Source: Dictyostelium discoideum
Taxonomy: Eukaryota
Assembly (NCBI GenBank): GCA_000004695.1
Contig: CM000151.3
Location: forward strand, 6,016,001-6,080,000
Length of the DNA: 64,000 nt
Direction of reading: 5' to 3'
Shown: piece by piece, positions 35,213 through 47,145 of the stretch
How positions within the stretch are numbered: the stretch's first letter is position 1
Layout of the letters: each line of letters starts with the position of its first letter
The notes under the pieces: generated by a model
The model's database searches: none
Seen by the model: the letters and a program-made list of their open reading frames with translations, nothing else
What the model was told of the DNA's origin: nothing
Translations under genes and position numbers: made by a program

Positions 35213-35875
35213 ATGTGTGGAATTAGTGGTTGGGTAGATTGGTCAAATAAAAATGATTTATTAAAAGAAGTTGCAATAATTCAAAGAATGAATCAAAGTG
35301 TTTATCATAGAGGACCAGAGGAAGGTGGAATTTGGAAATCAAGTGATGCATTATTTGGACATCGTAGATTATGTGTTATTGATGCAGCAGGTGGTAAACA
35401 ACCAATGATTTTTAAAAAAGGTGATAAATCAATTGTATTATGTTTTAATGGGGAATTATATAATTTTCAAGATTTAAGAAATGAATTAATTTCTTTGGGT
35501 AATCAATTTAAAAGTCATTCTGATACTGAAGTAATTCTAATGTCATATATTCAATGGGGTGAACAATGTGTTAAAAAGTTTAACGGAATGTTTGCAGTTG
35601 CAATCTTTGATGAAGAAAACCAAAAATTATTCCTTGCAAGAGATCATCTTGGTGTTAAACCATTATTCTATTGTACTAGAGGTGATTCCATTCTTTTTGG
35701 TTCAGAAATGAAAGTTTTACTAGCAAATAATAAATTGGTTAAAGCAGAAGTTGATAAAGATGGTATTGCTCAATTATTTTATTTGGGTGCATTTCGTACA
35801 CCAGATATTGGTTGTATATTTAAAGATATACATGAAGTATCACCTGGACATTCAATTACATTTAATAAATCATTA

Positions 35876-35939
<64 letters not shown>

Positions 35940-37150
35940 TCTCTTTCACTACAACTGGTCAAAAAGAATATTGGAATTTAAAATGTTTACCACATACTGA
36001 TGATGTTCATCAAACAAGTAAAAAACTTAGAGGATTAATTGAAGGTGCACTTTCAAGACAATTAATATCAGATGTACCAATTACATTTTTATTATCTGGT
36101 GGTTTATCATCTAGTGTATTGGTTTCATTGGCATCATCACTATCGAAATCATCATTTCCTGAACCATGTCCAATTAATGAAACTAGTATTTTGAAAACTT
36201 TTTCATGTGAATTTGAAAATGATGATAAAGATTATAAAGAAGAAATTGAAGGACCAAAAAAACCATGGGTTGAAAAGGTTGTTAAAAATGTTCAAAGTAA
36301 TCATATTTCCACACAATGTAATGTTGATAATTTAATAAATACAATTTCATTACCAATGAAAGCAAGAGATCTTCCAAGTTTTTCAAAATGGGAAACACCA
36401 TTAAGACTAATGCTAAACAAAGTAAAAGATCATGGTGTGGTTTTAATCTCTGATGAAGGTTCTGATGAAATATTCTCTGGTTATGATTGGTTCAAAAAAC
36501 AATCTTCTTTAAATATGGATAGATTACCATGGATTGGCAATATCTATAATAATATCAATCATTTCTTAAAGGATCAAATATTAGAACAAGTTGATTTTAT
36601 GAAATATGGTGAGCAAGTCTATCAAAAAGCCATTAAAAACATGCCAGTGCTACAAGGTGAGGATGAAACTCAAGTAAAACAAAGAGTTGCCTCTTGGTTA
36701 TTTATTAAATACTTTTTAGTATATATGCTTGAACGTGAAGATAGAACATCAATGTCTCAATCATTAGAAGTTCGTGTACCTTATTGTGATTATAATTTGG
36801 TTGAATATTGTTGGAACATACCATACAATATGAAATCAATTGATGATATTGAAAAAGGTATTTTACGTCGTTCAATGGCTCAACAATTACCAAAAGATAT
36901 TTTATATCATACAAAGGATAATTTCCCATTATCAGTTAAAGATACAAATTTCTTTATTTCAGTTTGTAGTCTATTGGAAATTGAATTAAATAATCCATCC
37001 TCACCAATTTTAAATTTTATTAAAAAGGAATCAATTATGGAAATTATTAAAAATAAATATGATGAAAAATATCAAACCTATCAAAATCAAAGTGTTATTG
37101 AACATTTACTTCAAGTAAATACATGGATCATTGATTATAATGTTAAATTT

Positions 37151-37156
<6 letters not shown>
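35213..37156 (+). CDS. Asparagine synthetase-like glutamine amidotransferase of the bacterial AsnO/LtsA type (class II Ntn Cys-2 GATase plus PP-loop ATP pyrophosphatase), intronless
   Basis: 647-aa ORF. Opens MCGISGWVDW (like Bacillus AsnO MCGITGWVDF) and carries the SGGLSSS PP-loop. Host-like AT-rich codons and a poly-N19 insert argue it is a native gene, not contamination. Confidence 0.85.
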
Positions 37157-37306: not shown

Positions 37307-38202
37307 TTAATGTTGCTTAATTAAAGAGATTTTATCTAATCCTCTTGATTGTTTCAAACCATTATTTGTTAATAAAATGATGCCATCACAATTTCCATCT
37401 TTTGGAATATTAATAATAAAATCATTTTTTTCATTAATATTATTGTTAACACTATCATCATTATTCTCTATTTGAAACTTGTGAGTGATCATTTCATTAA
37501 TTTCATCTGTTTTAAATTCAATCACTGTTTGAGGTTGTACATCTTGTTTTTCAATATTATAAATAATATAAATAAATGTTAGTTTTGAATCTTCAGTTTC
37601 ATTATCTTCGTTTAATGAACTTGAATATTGCTTTGTGTTTTTTTCAATTCTAAAACCTTTTGAAGTTGAATTAAAATCAATATTGAATTGATTTGTTTTT
37701 TTATCCAATAAACTTTGTGTTAACTAAATAAAAACAATAATAAAAATAAAAATAATAAAATATATTAATATTTTATTAAAATCAATTAAATTAATAAATA
37801 TTAAAATTAAAAAAATAATAAATAAATACAAACCTTAATAATTAAATATGAAGCAATTATTCCTATTGAAATAATTGTTACAATAGTGGCTGATAATAAA
37901 ATTAAACCAATTATACTTTTACGAACCCAAATAAAAATTAATGAAAGTAATGTACCTAATAAAACTGAACCAATACCAATTTTATAAGCCATATCTGATC
38001 TATTTAAAATATTTCTACATTCAGTTGCCAATAATTTATATTGGTCAAATGTTAAATAACCTTCTAATTCATTTGGTAATTGAGTTGGTATTATTATTCT
38101 ATCTGAATGGCTACCCTCTTCTAATTTACAATTTTCACAACAACAAGTAGGGAATTTTAAATCTATACATTCTTTTTTTTTATAATTTTTTAATTTTAAC
38201 AA
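37307..38202 (-). CDS. Lineage-specific single-pass membrane protein (Cys-cluster N-terminus, TM helix, N-rich C-terminus), 2 exons; tandem paralog of 38662-39659
   Basis: Exon 1 is 38202-37834 (donor gtttgt), intron 110 nt, exon 2 is 37723-37307. The paralog shares IIIPTQLPNELEGYLTFDQYK and the C-terminal TKQY...FIYIIYN blocks. Confidence 0.55.
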
Positions 38203-38661
38203 ATAATTTTATAAATTAAATATAAATAAATATAAAAAAAAAAAAAAAAAAAAAAAAAACTATAAATAAATAAAAAAATATAATAAATAAATAAATTAAT
38301 AAATAAAAAAAAAAAAAAAATCAATATTATTATTTGTAAATTAAAAAACCAAAAAAAAAAATAATTTTAATAACAAAAAAAAATTTGTTTGATTTCTTTT
38401 TTAAAAATAAATTTATATTAAAATAAAATAAAAATATTAAAAAAAAAAAAAAATCATCCGACGTGGTGAAAAGTGTGAAAGTCTCACCAAAACCACCACC
38501 CCCCCCCCCACTTACACTAATTTTTCCAAAAAAATAAATAAAAAAAAAATAAAAATTAAAAAAAAAAAAAAAAAAAAAAAACTGTAATTATTTTTAGCAT
38601 ATTTTTGTATGATTTACATTTTATTATACACATATAAAAAAAGTTAACTATATATTAATTT

Positions 38662-39659
38662 TTAATTATCATGGTCATAATTTTTTAGATCTTGTTCTTC
38701 TTGATCTTCTTCTTCATAATCGTTCAAATTATTATGAATTAAAGATGTTTTATCATCAATTACAAGGTTTTCCTTACTTTTACTAGTGATGAGAATAGTT
38801 TTCATTTGAATACCTTGGTAATTGCCACTACTACCACCACCATTATTATTATTATCATCATCGAAATTATTATTTTGATTATTTTCATCAACATCACTAC
38901 AATTTTCATCGGTACCACAGTTACTATGAGATTCATTTGAAAGATTGAGTAATTCCTTTTCATCGATTGAATAATCTTGAGATGGAGAAGCCTCTTCGAT
39001 GATTTCACTATTGTTATCAACATTTGAAGAAGTTGATTGCTCTTCAGAAGAGTTTAGCATTCCATTAGTTGTGTTATTTGAGTTGTAGTGAATATAAATA
39101 TAGGTGAATCTTGAAATTTTATCTGACAAGAAATTTTGAGTGAGACTATCGAAATATTGCTTGGTCTTCTTTTCAAGAATGATTCCTTTTGCGCTATATT
39201 CAGAATTTAATTGTTCAATTTTTTGGTCCAATTGAGGTTGGACAGACTTGTAGTGTATATTTTTAATTTTATTAATAATTATATTTTTTTTTTTTTTTTT
39301 TAAAGGAAAAAAATGTTTAAAAAAACCCTTACCTTTAAAAGCATTGCAGCAAAAGAGAAACCAGTGAATAAAATAAATAAAACGGCTATTGTTAATAAAA
39401 TCAATAATTTTCTATCATTATAAATATTAATATAGAGCAAAGAAATTAAGCTTGCCACAACTACTGTAACTATAATGGATTTATAAGCTTCACTAGTTTT
39501 ATTAATAATATGTCTACAATCTGTGACAATTCTTTTATATTGTTTAAATGATAAAACTCCTTTCAATTGATCTGGTAATTGTTCTGGAATAATTATATCA
39601 TCTGAATAATAACGTGAAAAGAATGAATGTGAATTTGTTGGTACTTTAAATTTAATCAT
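38662..39659 (-). CDS. Tandem paralog of 37307-38202 (single TM), 2 exons
   Basis: Exon 1 is 39659-39333 (donor gtaagg), exon 2 is 39246-38662. Conserved blocks IIIPEQLPDQLKGVLSFKQYK and TKQYFDSL...FTYIYIHYN. Confidence 0.55.
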
Positions 39660-39967: not shown

Positions 39968-40869
39968 TTATTTTTTGAAGAAATCTGGGGAATTTGTGGG
40001 GAGTGCGAAGTGAATTATTGCCAGCTGGCAGTTTTTGGTGCGAAGTGGTGAAATATTTAAACAGAAAATTTATGGCATTGATTATAAAAAAAAAAAAAAA
40101 AAAAAATTTTTTTTTTTGTTTAGCTTTTTATATTAAAAATAAAAAAAAAAAAAAAAAAGAAAAAAAAAAACCAATTTTAAATAAAAAAAAAATAATAAAA
40201 AAAATAAATTTAAATATCTTTAGAGTGAGAGTTTCAGACCAGTCAATCAAATGTCATTCTTTTTTTATTCAATCACAATTATGTCGTGAAAATTTTTTTT
40301 ATTTTTTGTTTTTTTTTTTTTTGCCCTGTTTAATTTTATTTATTTTGATTTTTTGTTTTTTTTAATTTTCTATTTTTCTTCAAAGAAACTGATTATTTTT
40401 TACAAAAAAAGATTTTTTAATTTTTTTTTTTTTAAATTGCGTTCCACATTTAAGTGTTTTTCCCAATACCAATAATTATCTTAATTTATTATTTATATTT
40501 TTTTTTTTTTTTAAAATTTCTTTCATTTTTGTTTTTTTTTTTTTTTTTTTCTTTTCTAAACATTTTTTTTGTGAATCAAAAAAATAAAAAAATAAAAAAT
40601 TAAAATGACTTTTTTTAATTATTATTTTAATTTTAAATTTCTTTTGGTCGAAATGACTGAAAATAAGTTTTTGTGAGTATGATTTTTTTTTTTTTAATTA
40701 TTTTTAATTTTTTATTTTTTTATTTTAGTTTTTAGTTTTTTTTGAAATAATATTTTAATTTTAAATTTCTTTTGATCAAAATGTGAAAATAAGTTTTTGT
40801 GTGTACATTTTAATTATTTTTAATTATTTTTAGTTTTTTTTTTATTTTTTTTATTTTTTTTTTTTTTTT

Positions 40870-42918
40870 CTAAACAGTTTGAATCTTTTTAAATTTTGAT
40901 CTTGATGGATCATATTTTTTTCCAGTTCTTCTAGTTCTATCTTCTTCATAGGAAGCATAATTACCTTCATGAACGATTACTTGACCATCACCTTCAAATG
41001 CAATAATATGAGTACAAAGACGATCTAAAAAGTAACGATCATGACTAATGATAACAGCACAACCTGGATAATCTTCAATGGCAGTTTCTAAATTACGTAA
41101 TACATCAACATCCAAATCATTGGTAGGTTCATCCAATAATAAAAGATTACAACCTCTTTTAATCATTTTTGCAATATGAACACGATTACGTTCACCACCA
41201 GATAGAGAGCCAATGAATTTATCTTGTTCTGGACCACGGAAATTGAATTGAGAGATGTATTCTCTTACGTGAATTTTATAATTGTCACCCATAACTACAT
41301 CATCGGAGCCATCGGCAACCTCTTCATAGATGGTTTTCTCGTCGTCCATTGAAGCACGTGATTGTGCGACGAACCCCATACGAACGGTTTCACCCACTCT
41401 AATTGAACCGGTCAATGGTTTCAATTCACCAGTCATGATTCTAAAAAGTGTTGATTTACCTGTACCATTTGCACCAATGATACCAACGATTGAACCAGGT
41501 TCAATATCGATATTTAAATTTTTAAATAAAGTTCTACCATCAAATTCCATACTAATATCTTTGGCTTCAAATACTACTCTACCTAAACGTGGACAAGGTG
41601 GAATTGAAATTCTACCTGGTTCTCTGAATTTCTCTGGTGCACTTGCCACCAATTCATTGTATTTATCAATACGAACTTTATTCTTTTTAGTTTGAGCTTT
41701 AACACCACCTTTAAGATACTCCAATTCCTTTTTAATGGCTTTCTTTCTTCCCTCCTCCTTTTTATTCTCCATTGAGAGACGTTGCTCCTTTTGTAATAAC
41801 CAACCCGAGTAATTTCCTTTGAATGGTATGAGTGAACCACGATCAACCTCTAAAATCCAATTGGCGACATTATCTAAAAAGTAACGGTCATGAGTGATTG
41901 CAACCACTGTACCACGGTAGTCATGCAAGAAACGTTCTAACCATGCAACACTTTCTGCATCCAAATGATTTGTTGGTTCATCCAATAGTAATACATCAGG
42001 ATTTGAAATTAGTAAACGTGCCAATGCAACTCTACGTCTTTCACCACCTGACAATGTTGTTACATTACTATCACTTGGTGGGCAATTTAATGCGTCGATT
42101 GCAATTGCAATCTTTCTCTTTAAATCCCAAAGTCTTTCTTCCTCAATAATATCAGCCAATTCATCTCTTCTCTTTTCCAATTGTTTTCTTTCTTGTTTAG
42201 TTAACTCTTCATCTTCATCCTCTAATCTTTCCTCGATCTCTTCATGTTCATCCAATATCTCCTTCTTTTCTGCTACACCATCGAAAATATTCTCCTCAAC
42301 AGTTTTATCTGCATCCAACTCTGGTTCTTGATGAAGGAATCCAACTGTTAATCCTTTTGAATATAATACTTGTCCATCATGTTCCGTATCTTCTTGTGAT
42401 AAAATACGCATAAATGATGATTTACCACTACCATTGGTACCAAGTAAACCAATCTTTGATCCTTCTAAAAATGAAAGTGATATATCTTTTAATAAAATTT
42501 TACCATCATCTAATCTTTTATTAACTCCAACCATTGATAATATAACTTTATCTGTTTGATGTTTATCTGCTCCTGTTTTTTTTTCATTTCCTTTTTTTTT
42601 TGCTTTTTTAAAAAAATAAATTAATATTTAAAATTTTAAAATATTATATATTATATGTATGTGTGAGTGATTTTTAATAAATATTTACTTACTTGAATAT
42701 TGTTGAATTAAACCATATGATAAATTTTTGTTTAATTTTAAATTTTCATTTTTATTATTATTATTATTTAATTGAATTGAATTAACTATACTTTCTTTAT
42801 TATTTAAAGTAGTAATTGAAGTTATTGATTTATTTACATTTGTAATATAACAATATCCATTCTTTGTTGAATTAAGCAAAGATAATGGTTTTCTTAATTT
42901 TGAAAATGATGAAATCAT
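40870..42918 (-). CDS. ABCF-family ATPase of bacterial EttA (YjjK) type, two ABC domains and no TMD, with an N-terminal presequence-like exon; 2 exons
   Basis: Exon 1 is 42918-42693 (MISSFSKLRKPLSLLNS... basic and hydroxylated with no acidic residues, donor gtaagt). Intron is 120 nt. Exon 2 is 42572-40870. Exon 2 has blocks near-identical to E. coli EttA (LLLDEPTNHLDAESVAWLERFLHDYRGTVVAITHDRYFLDNVANWILEVDRG, LSGGERRRVALARLL, LLLDEPTNDLD). Homology starts before the first Met of exon 2 (KVILSMVGV aligns with EttA FVYTMHRV), which supports the splice. Possibly abcF4. Confidence 0.85.
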
Positions 42919-42990
42919 CCTTTGTTTACATTCGAAAAATAAAAAAAGTAAAAAAAAAAAAAAAGTTGAGCTAAAAAAAATCTAATTTCC

Positions 42991-43045
<55 letters not shown>

Positions 43046-43161
43046 GATAAATTAATTATTCGTTTTTTTTAATATTTTATTTTATTTTATTTTATTTTAT
43101 TCTATTTACAATTCGTTTGTTATTTCAGTTATTTATTTATATATATTTTTTTTTTCAATGA

Positions 43162-43427
43162 TTAATTTTTAGTTGATTCATTTGATTCTAAGATTACATT
43201 TGAAATTGCATAATCAGTATCATGAGAAATTGCTAGATGAATTTTATTAATACCCAATTCTTTGAAATATGATTCAGTTGTTTCTAATAAATTTACATAT
43301 GGACGTCCATTTGATTCATTTAAAATTTGAATATTTTGAAAATTTAATTTTGAACGATCTTGATTTCCAATTGCTTTATAAATTGATTCCTTTGCTGCCC
43401 ATCTACCTGCTAAATATTCAAATCCTC

Positions 43428-43476
<49 letters not shown>

Positions 43477-43755
43477 TAATTCACTATTATCGTTATCATC
43501 AATACTTTCTGTTATTGATGCTGTTGGATTTAGTGATTTAAATATTGATATTTCAACTTCATTAAATGCTCTTTTTAAAAATTTATCACCATGTCTTGGA
43601 ATTATCATTAAAAAAAAAAAAAAAATTAATAAAAAAAGGTGGAAAATGATAATAAAATATTTTAATTATTAATTATATTAAAAATACCTTTTAAATGATG
43701 ATTCTAATCTTGATATCTTTACAATATCATTTCCAATACCAAATATCTTATTCAT
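43162..43755 (-). CDS. Holo-[acyl-carrier-protein] synthase (AcpS-type 4'-phosphopantetheinyl transferase), 2 exons
   Basis: Exon 1 is 43755-43688 (MNKIFGIGNDIVKISRLESSFK, donor gtattt). Intron is 93 nt. Exon 2 is 43594-43162 (RHGDKFLKRAF...LAGRWAAKESIYKAIG...NGRPYV...LAISHDTDYAISNVILES). Colinear with bacterial AcpS, with a poly-N18 insertion. Confidence 0.75.
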
Positions 43756-43894
43756 TTTTTTATTTTCTTTTTTTTAATTTAAAATCAATTTGAAAACTTT
43801 TTCAATTTTTTTTTTTTTTTTTCATTTCTCATTTTTACATTTTTTTTTTTTTTTTTTTTTAATTTACCTCCAAAACACACACATACATAAAATA

Positions 43895-44583
43895 ATGAAC
43901 AATGAAGGATCTGCAGTTATAAGTATGTAGATATCAATTTTTGAAATGGTTTAAATAATAATAATAATAAACTAATACAAAATATTATTTTAAAATAATA
44001 ATTTAAAGATGAAGACGATGATACAAGTTTATTAGTAGTTATTTTAGATTGTAATGTTTATTCATGGGGTAATAGAGAGAAATCATTACAAGATGCGATA
44101 AGTGGTATGAATGATGATAATGACAGTAGTAGTAGATATAATGGTAGTACGACAATAGGGAACAATAATAACAACAACAATAACAATAATAGCAACAACA
44201 ATAATAATGTAAATAAAAGATTAATCAATACAAGTAAAAACAATTATATAGGATTCAATAAATTTTTAGAACACTTTATGGTATTTATAAATGCATATTT
44301 AATGCTAAATCAAGAGAATCAACTTGCAATCATTTGTTCTAAAATTGGTGAAAGTTCATTCGTTTTCCCACAATCAAATATTGATCAATATCAACAAGAA
44401 CAACAAGAACTTGAACAACGACAACTAAATGAAAATGGTGAACTATTACCAACACCCAATAAAACTATTCAAGGTCAAATATTAGCTAAATTACAAAAAT
44501 TAGATTTAGAAATAAAACATGATCAAACTGATATATTATCTTCAAGTTTCTCTGCTTCCATGTCAATTGCTTTATGTTGTATG

Positions 44584-44615
<32 letters not shown>

Positions 44616-44626
44616 TATTTACTAAT

Positions 44627-44682
<56 letters not shown>

Positions 44683-44963
44683 TAAATTAGATATAAATAG
44701 AATTAAAAGAGAAACACCAACAATTAAACCAAGAATTTTAGTATTTAATATATCACCAGATGTTTCATCACAATATATATCTGTAATGAATTGTATTTTT
44801 TCATCACAAAAGCAATCGATACCCGTTGATTCTTGTATACTTTCTCAATCAGATTCAACATTTTTACAACAAGCTTCACATTTAACGAGTGGTATTTATT
44901 TAAAACCACAAAAACAAGAATTATTATCACAATATTTATTGGTATGAATTATTATTATTTTTG

Positions 44964-45013
<50 letters not shown>

Positions 45014-45338
45014 TATGTTTCTAATATTTAATTTTAATTTTATAATAATAATAATAATAATATTGTAGACTACATTTTTATTAGATACATTATCAAGAAA
45101 ATCATTAGCATATCCAACATTAAAATCAGTTGATTATAGGGCATCATGTTTTTGTCATAAGAGAATTGTGGATATTGGTTATGTTTGTTCGGTTTGTTTA
45201 TCGATTTTTTGTGGTCACTCATCATCATGTTCAACTTGTGGAACTAAATTCTCTTTAAAAATAGATTTAAGAAAACAATTAAACAATAATCCCACCACTA
45301 CTACTTCTGCAACCTCAACAGTAAATAATAAATCATAG
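43895..45338 (+). CDS. gtf2h3: General transcription factor IIH subunit 3 (TFIIH p34 / Tfb4), 4 exons
   Basis: Exons 43895-43922 (donor gtatgt), 44009-44578 (DEDDDTSLLVVILDCNVYSWG..., donor gtatgt), 44691-44941 (YINRIKRE...KPRILVFN...QYLL, donor gtatga) and 45069-45338 (VDYRASCFCHKRIVDIGYVCSVCLSIFCG... zinc-binding C-terminus). Colinear with human GTF2H3, including the ALCY|I junction. Confidence 0.8.
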
Positions 45339-46121: not shown

Positions 46122-46613
46122 ATGTCAACAACTAATGATGCCAACACTACAACTACCACAACTAAAACTAAAGAACAAATTGAACAAGAGGCTATTGCCA
46201 GTTCAGTGATTACAGCAGATGCCAATAACTCATTACCACAACCAAAAGGTGAAGAATCTATCAAAATGAAAGAATCACTTGAAGATAAGAAAGCCGATGC
46301 AAATTTAGGTTCTGGTGCTAAAGATCAAGAGGTTTTCTTTGTTAAAGATTCAAATGGTGAAACCAAAGAAATCGGTAAAGAGATCACCAATCATAAAACC
46401 ACCCTTTACTTTAAAGGTTGTAAAGATGGTGTTTTCACAATCTCTGCTCGTGTTACTAAAATTATGATTGAAGCTTGTCAAAGATGTACTTTTAACTTTA
46501 AAGGTAGAATTTTTACAAATACCATTGAAGCTTGGAAAACTGTTGACTGTAAAGTTAATGTTTGTATCAAAAATTATTTTTTATAAAAAAAAGAAAAAAA
46601 ATATGTTTATTAA

Positions 46614-46661
<48 letters not shown>

Positions 46662-47145
46662 GATTTTAAATGATCAAGTTAAAACATTACAAGTTGATAT
46701 GACCTCTAGAATGTCAATTACATTTGATACAAGAGATTCACTCCATAGTATTATTTGGAGTGGTGTCAATGATATGAAACTTTATTTCTCTGATGAAGCT
46801 GGTTTCGAACATCATACTGGTTTCGAACAAATGAAAGCAGTTTATCCAGAACAAGAGCTTTCATTCACCGTAGATCAATTCACAACTCGTTTCATTAAAG
46901 GTGTACTCACAACTGAGCAAATCATTCGTTTAGCCAATGGTTATCCATCAACTGAAAGAGAAGCAAGTGAATTTGATGCAAATGAAGAATTAAATAAAAA
47001 GAGAGCTGAAGAATTTATTAGAAAGAGATTAGCCGATAATGGTATCAGTTTAGGTACCGTTGGAATGAAAAAACCTGAAGTTGGTAGAAATGATGTTTGT
47101 CCATGCGGTAGTGGAAAGAAATATAAAAAATGTTGTTCAAAATAA
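46122..47145 (+). CDS. Beta-helix C-CAP/cofactor-C-like (TBCC/CARP-type) domain protein with C-terminal SEC-C-like Cys motif, 2 exons (tentative function)
   Basis: Exon 1 is 46122-46559 (donor gtttgt), exon 2 is 46663-47145 (acceptor tttatag). Repeated V/I-x-x-C beta-strand pattern (TLYFKGCKDGVFTISARVTKIMIEACQRCTFNF...ITFDTRDSLHSIIWSGVNDMKLYF). Ends CPCGSGKKYKKCC. The exon 1 donor choice is uncertain; 46553 is the alternative. Confidence 0.6.

Follow-up and report, generated by a model that had tools for sequence, protein, structure and literature searches.

Two protein-coding genes of bacterial type lie side by side on Dictyostelium discoideum AX4 chromosome 2, within the 64,000-nucleotide stretch of DNA that was analysed as a whole and is called the window here. 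The initial annotation had placed them head-to-tail on the minus strand, and this is where we find them. AcpS starts at an ATG at 43755, comprises 43755-43688 and 43594-43162, and encodes a product of 166 aa. Its 68-nt exon 1 (43688..43755, minus strand) runs from M1 to the first two bases of R23 and includes R16 and the GIGND motif with the Mg-binding Asp10. A 93-nt intron follows (43595..43687, minus strand; GT..AG, phase 2, 10.8% GC), and exon 2 (43162..43594, minus strand, stop codon included) encodes the remainder of the group I PPTase domain, including the WAAKESIYK motif with E92 and K96. Exon 2 also carries a run of 16 AAT codons (43429..43476, minus strand), which specifies Asn63-Asn78 within a low-confidence loop insertion. 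There is an in-frame TAA 7 codons upstream of the ATG.

The AcpS stop codon is separated from the abcF3 ATG by a spacer (42919..43161, minus strand) with 11.5% GC and a T run of ~60 nt on the coding strand, which presumably accommodates the 3´ end of AcpS as well as the promoter of abcF3. The genes are thus as closely spaced as first described, although the exact gap is 243 bp rather than 240 bp. Starting at an ATG at 42918, abcF3 comprises 42918-42693 and 42602-40870 on the minus strand, and its 652-aa product is identical to the AX4 RefSeq protein XP_643616.1 (EAL69569.1), which falls in the same cluster as AAL87693.1, "non-transporter ABC protein AbcF3". Exon 1 (42693..42918, minus strand, 226 nt) codes for most of an N-terminal extension of ~92 aa, and the 90-nt intron (42603..42692, minus strand; GTAAGT..AG, phase 1, 10% GC) falls inside the conserved Y-S|(T)-K-K motif that ends this extension. 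Exon 2 (40870..42602, minus strand, stop codon included) encodes a complete EttA-type body, made up of ABC1 with its arm, the PtIM linker and ABC2. A repeat scan found one 86-nt duplicated segment 3´ of abcF3; besides this, it returned low-complexity A/T runs and the internal similarity between the ABC1 and ABC2 Walker B regions across the locus. No tRNAs were found in a tRNA scan of the locus.

On its other side, AcpS is divergent, across 351 bp, from the gene for the TFIIH subunit Tfb4 (44107..45304, plus strand; the 3´ limit is approximate, being the last tblastx match). The same divergent pair is present in D. firmibasis, D. purpureum, T. lacteum and H. album, and Tfb4 is the evolutionarily conserved partner of AcpS. 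The other neighbours in the window encode an asparagine synthase, a CAP_C/SEC-C protein, a PIP5K (named by its tblastx match to a PIP5K-annotated D. purpureum gene) and a WD40 protein (named from its D. firmibasis ortholog), together with small unknown genes.

The initial annotation had credited AcpS and abcF3 with the same architecture, in which a short exon 1 and an intron precede the conserved body. This description fails for AcpS, in which exon 1 codes for the catalytic core (GIGxD with Asp10, R16 and part of R23), whereas exon 1 of abcF3 codes for the N-terminal extension; the intron phases differ as well. The distribution of the two introns further weakens the comparison. D. firmibasis and H. 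album have the abcF3 intron at the same place; D. purpureum and T. lacteum lack it. The AcpS exon 1 boundary is identical in D. firmibasis, D. purpureum and T. lacteum, while the intron is absent in C. fasciculata and at another position in H. album. Because the D. discoideum and H. album abcF3 introns share position and phase, this intron is probably old and probably was lost twice. We considered abcF3 exon 1 as a relic of presequence gain by exon shuffling, and rejected this idea since the intron-less D. purpureum and T. lacteum genes have a comparable extension. A single short 5´-proximal intron is a commonplace gene layout in D. discoideum, and the common exon-intron layout of AcpS and abcF3 is superficial.

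Families and functions of AcpS and AbcF3

The assignment of AcpS as an AcpS-type phosphopantetheinyl transferase (PPTase) is borne out by profile scores, fold and catalytic residues. The protein scores 91.4 bits against TIGR00516 (cut-off 59.8), 97.7 bits against TIGR00556 (cut-off 45.35) and 68.3 bits against PF01648 (cut-off 25). The Mg/CoA-binding residues D10, E92 and K96 do not vary among 10 dictyostelid sequences and fall on the bacterial motifs when aligned, and the catalytic motifs have likewise been pointed out by Nair 2011 (PMC3171403). With an AF2 model of the protein (mean pLDDT 82, 111 residues at pLDDT of at least 90), the top Foldseek matches are AcpS of E. coli (first, TM 0.91), V. 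cholerae and N. meningitidis (target-normalised TM 0.88-0.92). AcpS is a single-domain, AcpS-type (group I) PPTase of bacterial type. Its fold, a single alpha/beta domain, matches that of AcpS from E. coli (5VBX), S. pneumoniae (1FTE) and B. subtilis (1F7L) at TM 0.85-0.91, and these enzymes also share its catalytic Asp, Glu and Lys, with only 25-32% identity. Unlike bacterial AcpS, the Dictyostelium gene has a spliceosomal intron, and the protein has a disordered Asn-rich insertion of ~30 residues that separates its second helical segment from the long central helix. An 18-Asn insertion in a surface loop had been noted at the outset; the placement in a loop is supported by the AF2 model, where residues 50-75 lie between two helices at pLDDT <50, whereas the uninterrupted run is 16 residues long. 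In the alignment, the run sits inside a ~29-column insertion that is specific to the D. discoideum complex and missing from D. purpureum and more distant dictyostelids, and run length is variable among D. discoideum strains.

A grouping of AcpS with cytosolic fungal-type enzymes would have spoken against the idea of an organelle-gene neighbourhood. The protein instead stands apart from fungal FAS-type and Sfp-type PPTases in similarity searches, in the tree and in Foldseek. The PPT domain of fungal type I FAS alpha (2UV8, 4V58) and the Sfp-type PPTases share the PPTase superfamily PF01648 with Dictyostelium AcpS, but the fungal domain is a far weaker match (E 2e-7 to 2e-3, compared with 2e-15 for bacterial AcpS), and it is part of FAS alpha whereas AcpS is free-standing. 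No Sfp-type chains were among the AcpS matches at E <=0.01.

The biochemistry of this gene has already been published, and it agrees with the initial suggestion that AcpS serves mitochondrial ACP. The protein is the same as DiAcpS (DDB0217726) of Nair 2011 (PMC3171403), with matching R16/R23 numbering and GxD and WxxKExxK motifs, and was reported there as the sole AcpS-like D. discoideum protein in a Dictybase search. In vitro, DiAcpS transfers the phosphopantetheine arm of CoA to the serine of the stand-alone type II ACP DDB0184099, which has a mitochondrial import signal, and so yields holo-ACP, as it does with Rv1344. It was inactive on type I PKS/FAS ACPs, and FAS/PKS of D. discoideum are served by an Sfp-type enzyme of their own. 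The DiAcpS mRNA occurs throughout development, and no homologous-recombinant knockout was recovered (PMC3171403). The intron, the poly-Asn loop, the missing presequence and the gene neighbours are not discussed in that study.

AbcF3 proves to be EttA-like, as first proposed. It scores 764.3 bits against the EttA equivalog NF008775 (cut-off 599), a full-length match in which residues 93-650 cover profile positions 3-555 of 556. Against the stricter TIGR03719 subfamily model it reaches 768.2 bits, a near miss of the cut-off of 806.75, as would be expected of a diverged eukaryotic member. It contains two PF00005 domains and the PtIM linker (PF12848, residues 326-395), and a profile search gave no match to membrane-domain families. 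Both ABC domains have intact Walker B/catalytic Glu motifs (LLLDEPTNHLD and LLLDEPTNDLD), along with Walker A motifs (GTNGSGKS and GANGTGKS) and signatures (LSGGERRR and LSGGERNR). AbcF3 is colinear with residues 6-559 of E. coli EttA (YjjK; 4FIN, 3J5S; 565 bits), with which it shares two ABC domains, the ABC1 arm, the PtIM linker, Walker A/B with the catalytic Glu, two LSGGER motifs and the C-terminal tail. The alignment is continuous through E. coli EttA residues 95-140, the region of the arm, which in AbcF3 is 5 residues longer and very acidic. Two further features set AbcF3 apart from the E. coli protein: the N-terminal extension, most of which has an exon to itself, and a gene that is nuclear, intron-containing and AT-rich.

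The D. discoideum AX4 ABCF proteins given in Table S1 of Murina 2019 (PMC6723617) are ABCF7, ABCF2, mEttA and ABCF6. AbcF3 is a member of the mEttA subfamily. That study describes the subfamily as bacterial-like, proposes that it arose by endosymbiosis, and predicts transit peptides for mitochondria in its members. No experimental study of any mEttA was found in the literature searched, and no functional study of Dictyostelium abcF3 was apparent from titles and term counts. By analogy with E. coli EttA, the most likely mechanism is one in which the N-terminal extension would direct AbcF3 into mitochondria, where its ribosome partner, unlike that of the E. coli protein, would be the mitoribosome. 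ATP-bound AbcF3 would enter the E site of this bacterial-type ribosome, its PtIM would touch the P-site tRNA, and early peptide-bond formation would be tuned by the ATP/ADP ratio.

Cellular compartment of the two proteins

No localisation experiment turned up in the literature searched; the mitochondrial localisation of AbcF3 is a prediction, and a weak one for this exact protein: published TargetP scores for the 652-aa Dictyostelium mEttA are 0.589 for mTP and 0.558 for other, in reliability class 5 (PMC6723617). This marginal score, and TargetP calls for the D. purpureum and Acanthamoeba mEttA that are not mitochondrial (PMC6723617), could mean that AbcF3 is an EttA-type protein that is not, or not only, mitochondrial, being cytosolic or dual-targeted with a target other than the mitoribosome. 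In the same vein, DiAcpS may act on the ACP precursor while this is still in the cytosol, as would fit the amoebozoan AcpS orthologs, none of which has an N-terminal presequence and all of which begin 2-12 residues ahead of the catalytic GIGxD. We regard these departures from a mitochondrial location as unlikely. Most mEttA sequences are predicted to be mitochondrial (PMC6723617), and an N-terminal extension of ~30-100 aa, which bacterial EttA does not have, is present in every eukaryotic mEttA examined. These extensions are basic, acid-poor and rich in hydroxylated residues; that of AbcF3 is Ser/Thr/Asn-rich, its first 40 residues include 5 K/R and 0 D/E, and no acidic residue precedes position 42. 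They end in a conserved (R)-x-Y|S-K-K motif, which we infer resembles an R-3 processing site; for AbcF3, the mature N-terminus is predicted to fall near Y74/S75. An EttA-type PtIM and arm would also suit a bacterial-type ribosome.

For DiAcpS itself, a mitochondrial location is putative. We looked for an upstream start or exon that could supply a presequence, and discarded this possibility given the in-frame TAA and Tfb4 only 351 bp away. The same start is also seen in 13 dictyostelid sequences and in Physarum, Arcella and other eukaryotes. The main text of the Acanthamoeba mitochondrial proteome paper makes no mention of EttA, ABCF or AcpS.

Age of the genes and origin of their adjacency

The description of the pair as bacterial-origin genes stands in the sense of bacterial type, an EttA-type ABCF and an AcpS-type PPTase. 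Recent horizontal transfer of one bacterial segment bearing the two genes, or an assembly contaminated with bacterial DNA, could be read from the fact that the closest solved homologs of both proteins are bacterial, and that the closest non-amoebozoan matches to AbcF3 are proteobacterial EttA with 53-56% identity. The likelihood of either is negligible in our judgement. Both genes have spliceosomal introns of ~10% GC, the flanks are 11-19% GC, and GC3 is 18.5% for abcF3 and 5% for AcpS, with 9-15% in neighbouring genes; the poly-Asn tract also argues against a bacterial segment. Orthologs are found in all dictyostelids examined and in Physarum and Arcella, with mEttA present in Ceratiomyxa too, and AcpS and mEttA are unlinked in most species. 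In a neighbour-joining tree, AcpS recovers the dictyostelid species tree, with 100% support for the dictyostelid clade, and Physarum, Arcella and other eukaryotes are set apart from the nearest bacterial AcpS. Introns, composition and wide amoebozoan distribution rule out a recent arrival. Judged by these sequence data, both are ancient, host-like nuclear genes of bacterial type, inherited vertically within Amoebozoa. Alpha- and gammaproteobacterial EttA are equally similar to AbcF3, and no single bacterial donor lineage emerges; the nearest bacterial AcpS matches are from the PVC group, in a protein too short for this to indicate a donor.

The adjacency of the two genes is much younger. AcpS and abcF3 are next to each other only in the D. 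discoideum complex, that is, in D. discoideum strains, D. citrinum, D. firmibasis and D. dimigraforme, where they have consecutive locus tags; the arrangement in D. firmibasis is the same, with a spacing of 230 bp. The pair is unlinked in 6/6 species outside the complex, as seen from both loci on different scaffolds in D. purpureum, T. lacteum and H. album, from the AcpS locus plus scaffold sizes in C. fasciculata, where mEttA is inferred to be on another scaffold, and from scaffold sizes only in P. violaceum and A. subglobosum. At the AcpS loci of D. purpureum, T. lacteum, H. album and C. fasciculata, tblastn gave no ABCF match. Most probably, a local rearrangement that postdates the split from D. 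purpureum, on the branch leading to the D. discoideum complex, brought the conserved Tfb4-AcpS pair next to abcF3, which kept its old neighbourhood. The D. purpureum mEttA adjoins orthologs of the window genes at 26.5-34.5 kb, which suggests that abcF3 stayed put and that Tfb4-AcpS was joined to it.

The initial annotation had raised the possibility of a small neighbourhood of organelle-function genes, and a functional version of this idea can be formulated, in which AcpS and mEttA are co-regulated, through a shared chromatin domain or read-through, and coordinate mitochondrial lipoate/ACP biology with translation. Each product has a plausible role in mitochondrial processes, the two genes form a tandem with a short spacer, and the arrangement has been kept at a similar spacing in D. 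firmibasis and with consecutive locus tags in the rest of the complex. However, under neutral synteny very close relatives would be expected to keep the arrangement, and the linkage does not extend beyond the complex. The remaining window neighbours matched no mitochondrial family, and in C. fasciculata it is SdhA, a different mitochondrial gene, that lies 240 bp downstream of AcpS. The D. discoideum genome has roughly 12,500 genes. Because about 935 of them code for mitochondrial proteins (derived from PMC9118663), dozens of mitochondrial-gene pairs are expected by chance. We therefore consider a functional organelle-gene neighbourhood very unlikely, and it is just as unlikely that the tandem with its ~240-bp spacer now forms a co-regulated or read-through unit in the D. 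discoideum complex. Were there such a unit, it would couple mitochondrial ACP activation, and with it lipoate synthesis, complex I and Fe-S assembly, to the control of mitochondrial translation, but we see no sign of a function for the adjacency.

The reading we favour, with a probability of about 0.88, is that two unrelated and already described nuclear genes, one for the mitochondrial ACP PPTase and one for mEttA, came to be in tandem by chance through a recent rearrangement. Since both genes are annotated and published, and their pairing is lineage-specific and explicable by chance, the pair carries little weight as a discovery. The negative result is of use in that one candidate "organelle gene cluster" is removed. 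For specialists, a puzzle is posed by amoebozoan AcpS, which has no targeting sequence even though its substrate is a presequence-bearing mitochondrial ACP. D. discoideum abcF3, in turn, offers a tractable entry point to the question of whether an ABCF factor acts on a mitoribosome.

Two published genes side by side on the minus strand

Reading the minus strand of 40500-44200, and splicing it by hand and by script, gave two head-to-tail gene models in a window of 23% GC. The AcpS gene, a group I phosphopantetheinyl transferase, starts at ATG 43755 and consists of exon 1 (43755-43688, 68 nt) and exon 2 (43594-43162), parted by a 93-nt GT..AG intron in phase 2 (between 43688 and 43594), with a product of 166 aa. 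The ABCF gene starts at ATG 42918 and joins exon 1 (42918-42693, 226 nt) to exon 2 (42602-40870) across a 90-nt GTAAGT..AG intron in phase 1 (between 42693 and 42602), yielding 652 aa. The stop codon of AcpS lies 243 bp from the ABCF start codon. Because these models and this gap agree with the initial annotation, its coordinates, orientation, spacing and intron sizes for the two genes can be kept.

Its naming of the genes, as an EttA-like ABCF and an AcpS, was also correct, and both are already known from the literature. All 652 residues of the spliced ABCF agree with the D. discoideum AX4 protein XP_643616.1/EAL69569.1, whose 90% cluster contains AAL87693.1, "non-transporter ABC protein AbcF3"; the gene is therefore abcF3, and the model is the reference annotation. 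Among the four ABCFs of D. discoideum AX4 (ABCF7, ABCF2, mEttA and ABCF6), mEttA represents a bacterial-like eukaryotic subfamily of algae and Amoebozoa; its members are predicted to carry mitochondrial targeting peptides, its origin is probably endosymbiotic, and Acanthamoeba, oomycetes and a haptophyte are also reported to have it (Murina et al., 2019; PMC6723617). The AcpS of the window matches DiAcpS (DDB0217726), with exact agreement at R16, R23 and two motifs; this was the sole AcpS-like protein reported from a Dictybase search (Nair et al., 2011; PMC3171403). In that study DiAcpS turned the stand-alone ACP DDB0184099 (mitochondrial MitoProt score 0.99) into holo-ACP, the ACPs of type I PKS/FAS were not its substrates and were served by DiSfp, and no homologous-recombinant knockout of the DiAcpS gene could be recovered.

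Nearby, two tandem paralogous small genes without a Pfam match occupy 37307-39659 on the minus strand, each apparently with two exons, one encoding a hydrophobic C-terminus (ORFs of 119 and 131 aa) and the other with ORFs of 189 and 133 aa; their D. firmibasis orthologs are annotated as proteins of 293 and 241 aa. A two-exon plus-strand gene at 46122-47145 encodes a weak CAP_C-like region and a C-terminal SEC-C metal-binding motif, and its D. firmibasis counterpart is annotated as a single 304-aa protein.

History of the adjacency

The pair had been proposed to form a small neighbourhood of organelle-function genes with a common exon-intron layout, and synteny speaks against this. Consecutive AcpS-ABCF locus tags are found in several D. 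discoideum strains, D. citrinum, D. cf. discoideum, D. firmibasis and D. dimigraforme; in D. firmibasis the spacer is 230 bp and the order is that of the window (the TFIIH subunit gene Tfb4, AcpS, ABCF, the two small genes, asparagine synthase). The adjacency is missing in D. purpureum (AcpS on a 257,903-bp scaffold, ABCF on a 49,910-bp one), T. lacteum (1.47 and 1.40 Mb), H. album (3.24 and 1.05 Mb) and C. fasciculata (4.17 and 2.75 Mb), as well as in A. subglobosum and P. violaceum, where the two genes lie on contigs of unequal size. In four of these species, tblastn with ABCF against the 20 kb around AcpS found no match.

The divergent Tfb4-AcpS pair is older than the AcpS-abcF3 pairing. 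It occurs in D. discoideum, D. firmibasis, D. purpureum, T. lacteum and H. album (window 43756-45304; dictyostelid loci L001 8609-10521, L002 8734-10464, L003 8400-10780 and L008 7920-10558), with a common intergenic region of 115-740 bp; Tfb4 is not beside AcpS in C. fasciculata. The mEttA gene of D. purpureum adjoins orthologs of window genes at 26.5-34.5 kb (PIP5K, an ankyrin/C1 gene and a third gene). In the simplest history, abcF3 would have kept its old neighbourhood, and a rearrangement on the D. discoideum branch, later than its divergence from D. purpureum, would have brought the Tfb4-AcpS pair beside it.

No other gene around the pair matched a mitochondrial family. We take the D. 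discoideum gene total to be roughly 12,500. With the ~935 mitochondrial proteins implied by a mitochondrial compendium (PMC9118663), about 7% of the neighbours of mitochondrial genes should themselves be mitochondrial, or several dozen pairs genome-wide, a rough expectation that supports a chance adjacency of AcpS and abcF3. In C. fasciculata (L004 10001-12885), the gene 240 bp downstream of AcpS, in head-to-tail orientation, encodes a succinate dehydrogenase flavoprotein; two mitochondrial genes are adjacent here too, with another partner for AcpS, and farther on lie genes for a peroxiredoxin and an EF-hand NDH2-type dehydrogenase.

The likeness in architecture proved superficial. Some of the AcpS catalytic core is already encoded by exon 1 (GIGND, R16 and two bases of R23), whereas exon 1 of abcF3 encodes an N-terminal extension missing from bacterial EttA, and the introns differ in phase (2 versus 1). 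They also differ in distribution: the AcpS site is common to D. firmibasis, D. purpureum and T. lacteum, H. album has an intron at another site (codon 61) and the C. fasciculata gene is intronless, while the abcF3 site and phase are common to D. firmibasis and H. album, and no intron is present in the mEttA genes of D. purpureum and T. lacteum, where it was lost or never existed. One short 5´ intron is an ordinary D. discoideum gene pattern, and given these differences the resemblance reflects that pattern and not a common history.

The description of both genes as bacterial in origin is right insofar as they are ancient genes of bacterial type. Their coding sequences are fully host-like, with GC3 of 5% for AcpS and 18.5% for mEttA versus 9-15% for neighbouring genes, and introns and spacers of 10-19% GC. 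In a dictyostelid AcpS profile search, Physarum (42% identity), Arcella and other eukaryote transcriptome sequences rank above bacterial AcpS; a modest neighbor-joining tree, built on a short protein with few bacteria (124 columns, 200 bootstraps), recovers the dictyostelid species tree and sets eukaryote sequences apart from the sampled bacteria. Ceratiomyxa also has mEttA, with 54% identity and the extension. This composition and these wider amoebozoan relatives rule out a recent transfer.

DiAcpS and its asparagine loop

DiAcpS scores 91 bits against TIGR00516 (cut-off 59.8) and 68 bits against PF01648. Its closest solved relatives are bacterial (1FTE, 2e-15; E. coli 5VBX, 2e-14), while fungal FAS PPT domains match far more weakly (2e-7 to 2e-3) and the solved-structure matches include no Sfp-type chain. 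An AlphaFold2 model built from ten dictyostelid sequences has a mean pLDDT of 82, falling below 50 only at residues 50-75 and the last three, and Foldseek places it on E. coli AcpS with a target-normalised TM of 0.91; D10, E92 and K96 are invariant in the dictyostelid alignment. DiAcpS is an Mg-dependent enzyme that transfers 4´-phosphopantetheine from CoA to mitochondrial ACP, as shown in vitro (Nair et al., 2011; PMC3171403), and its fold and residues are confirmed here.

The asparagine run, previously counted as 18 residues, is 16 long (aa 63-78; 43429-43476) and does lie in a loop, disordered, between a helical segment whose last residue is 49 and a long helix at 79-98. The insertion is exclusive to the D. 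discoideum complex and varies in length among D. discoideum strains, from N16 in AX4 to interrupted tracts of N8-K-N3 or N7-K-N3; that of D. cf. discoideum is shorter. The plus-strand glutamine-hydrolysing asparagine synthase gene at 35213-37156 (PF00733, PF13537) carries a run of more than 20 Asn, a further case of the poly-Asn insertions routine in this genome.

DiAcpS and every amoebozoan AcpS ortholog begin just 2-12 residues ahead of the catalytic GIGxD (43688-43755; proteins P0007-P0013, P0161 and P0165), and in the window an in-frame TAA stands 7 codons 5´ of the ATG. An N-terminal mitochondrial presequence is absent from all of them, though the substrate ACP has one; sequence therefore does not show where in the cell mitochondrial ACP receives its modification.

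AbcF3 as a putative mitochondrial EttA

AbcF3 matches the EttA equivalog NF008775 with 764 bits over residues 93-650 (cut-off 599) and the stricter TIGR03719 with 768 bits, slightly short of its cut-off of 806.75; Pfam identifies two ABC_tran domains and the ABCF linker PF12848. The best solved-structure matches are E. coli EttA 3J5S and 4FIN (565 bits). The protein is colinear with E. coli EttA residues 6 to 559, keeping both Walker A motifs, both LLLDEPTN Walker B/catalytic Glu motifs, both LSGGER motifs and the arm region. The abcF3 3´ flank holds a direct repeat of ~86 nt with 84% identity, 126 nt apart (40658-40743 and 40784-40869), and is otherwise A/T low complexity.

The N-terminal extension is rich in Ser/Thr/Asn, with five K/R and no acidic residues before position 42. 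In most orthologs it ends in an (R)-x-Y|S-K-K motif, which is conserved across dictyostelids and Ceratiomyxa and which we read as resembling an R-3 presequence processing site. This motif is exactly where the phase-1 intron falls in D. discoideum, D. firmibasis and H. album (window 42603-42700; dictyostelid loci L007 10283/10347 and L008 11008/11109). The published TargetP prediction gives the same 652-aa protein a marginal mTP score (0.589, reliability class 5; PMC6723617); we consider AbcF3 probably mitochondrial, at about four chances in five. By homology to EttA, its mechanism is most likely one in which AbcF3 would be imported via the N-terminal extension and, in its ATP state, would bind the mitoribosomal E site, where its PtIM may contact the P-site tRNA and so modulate early elongation according to the ATP/ADP ratio.
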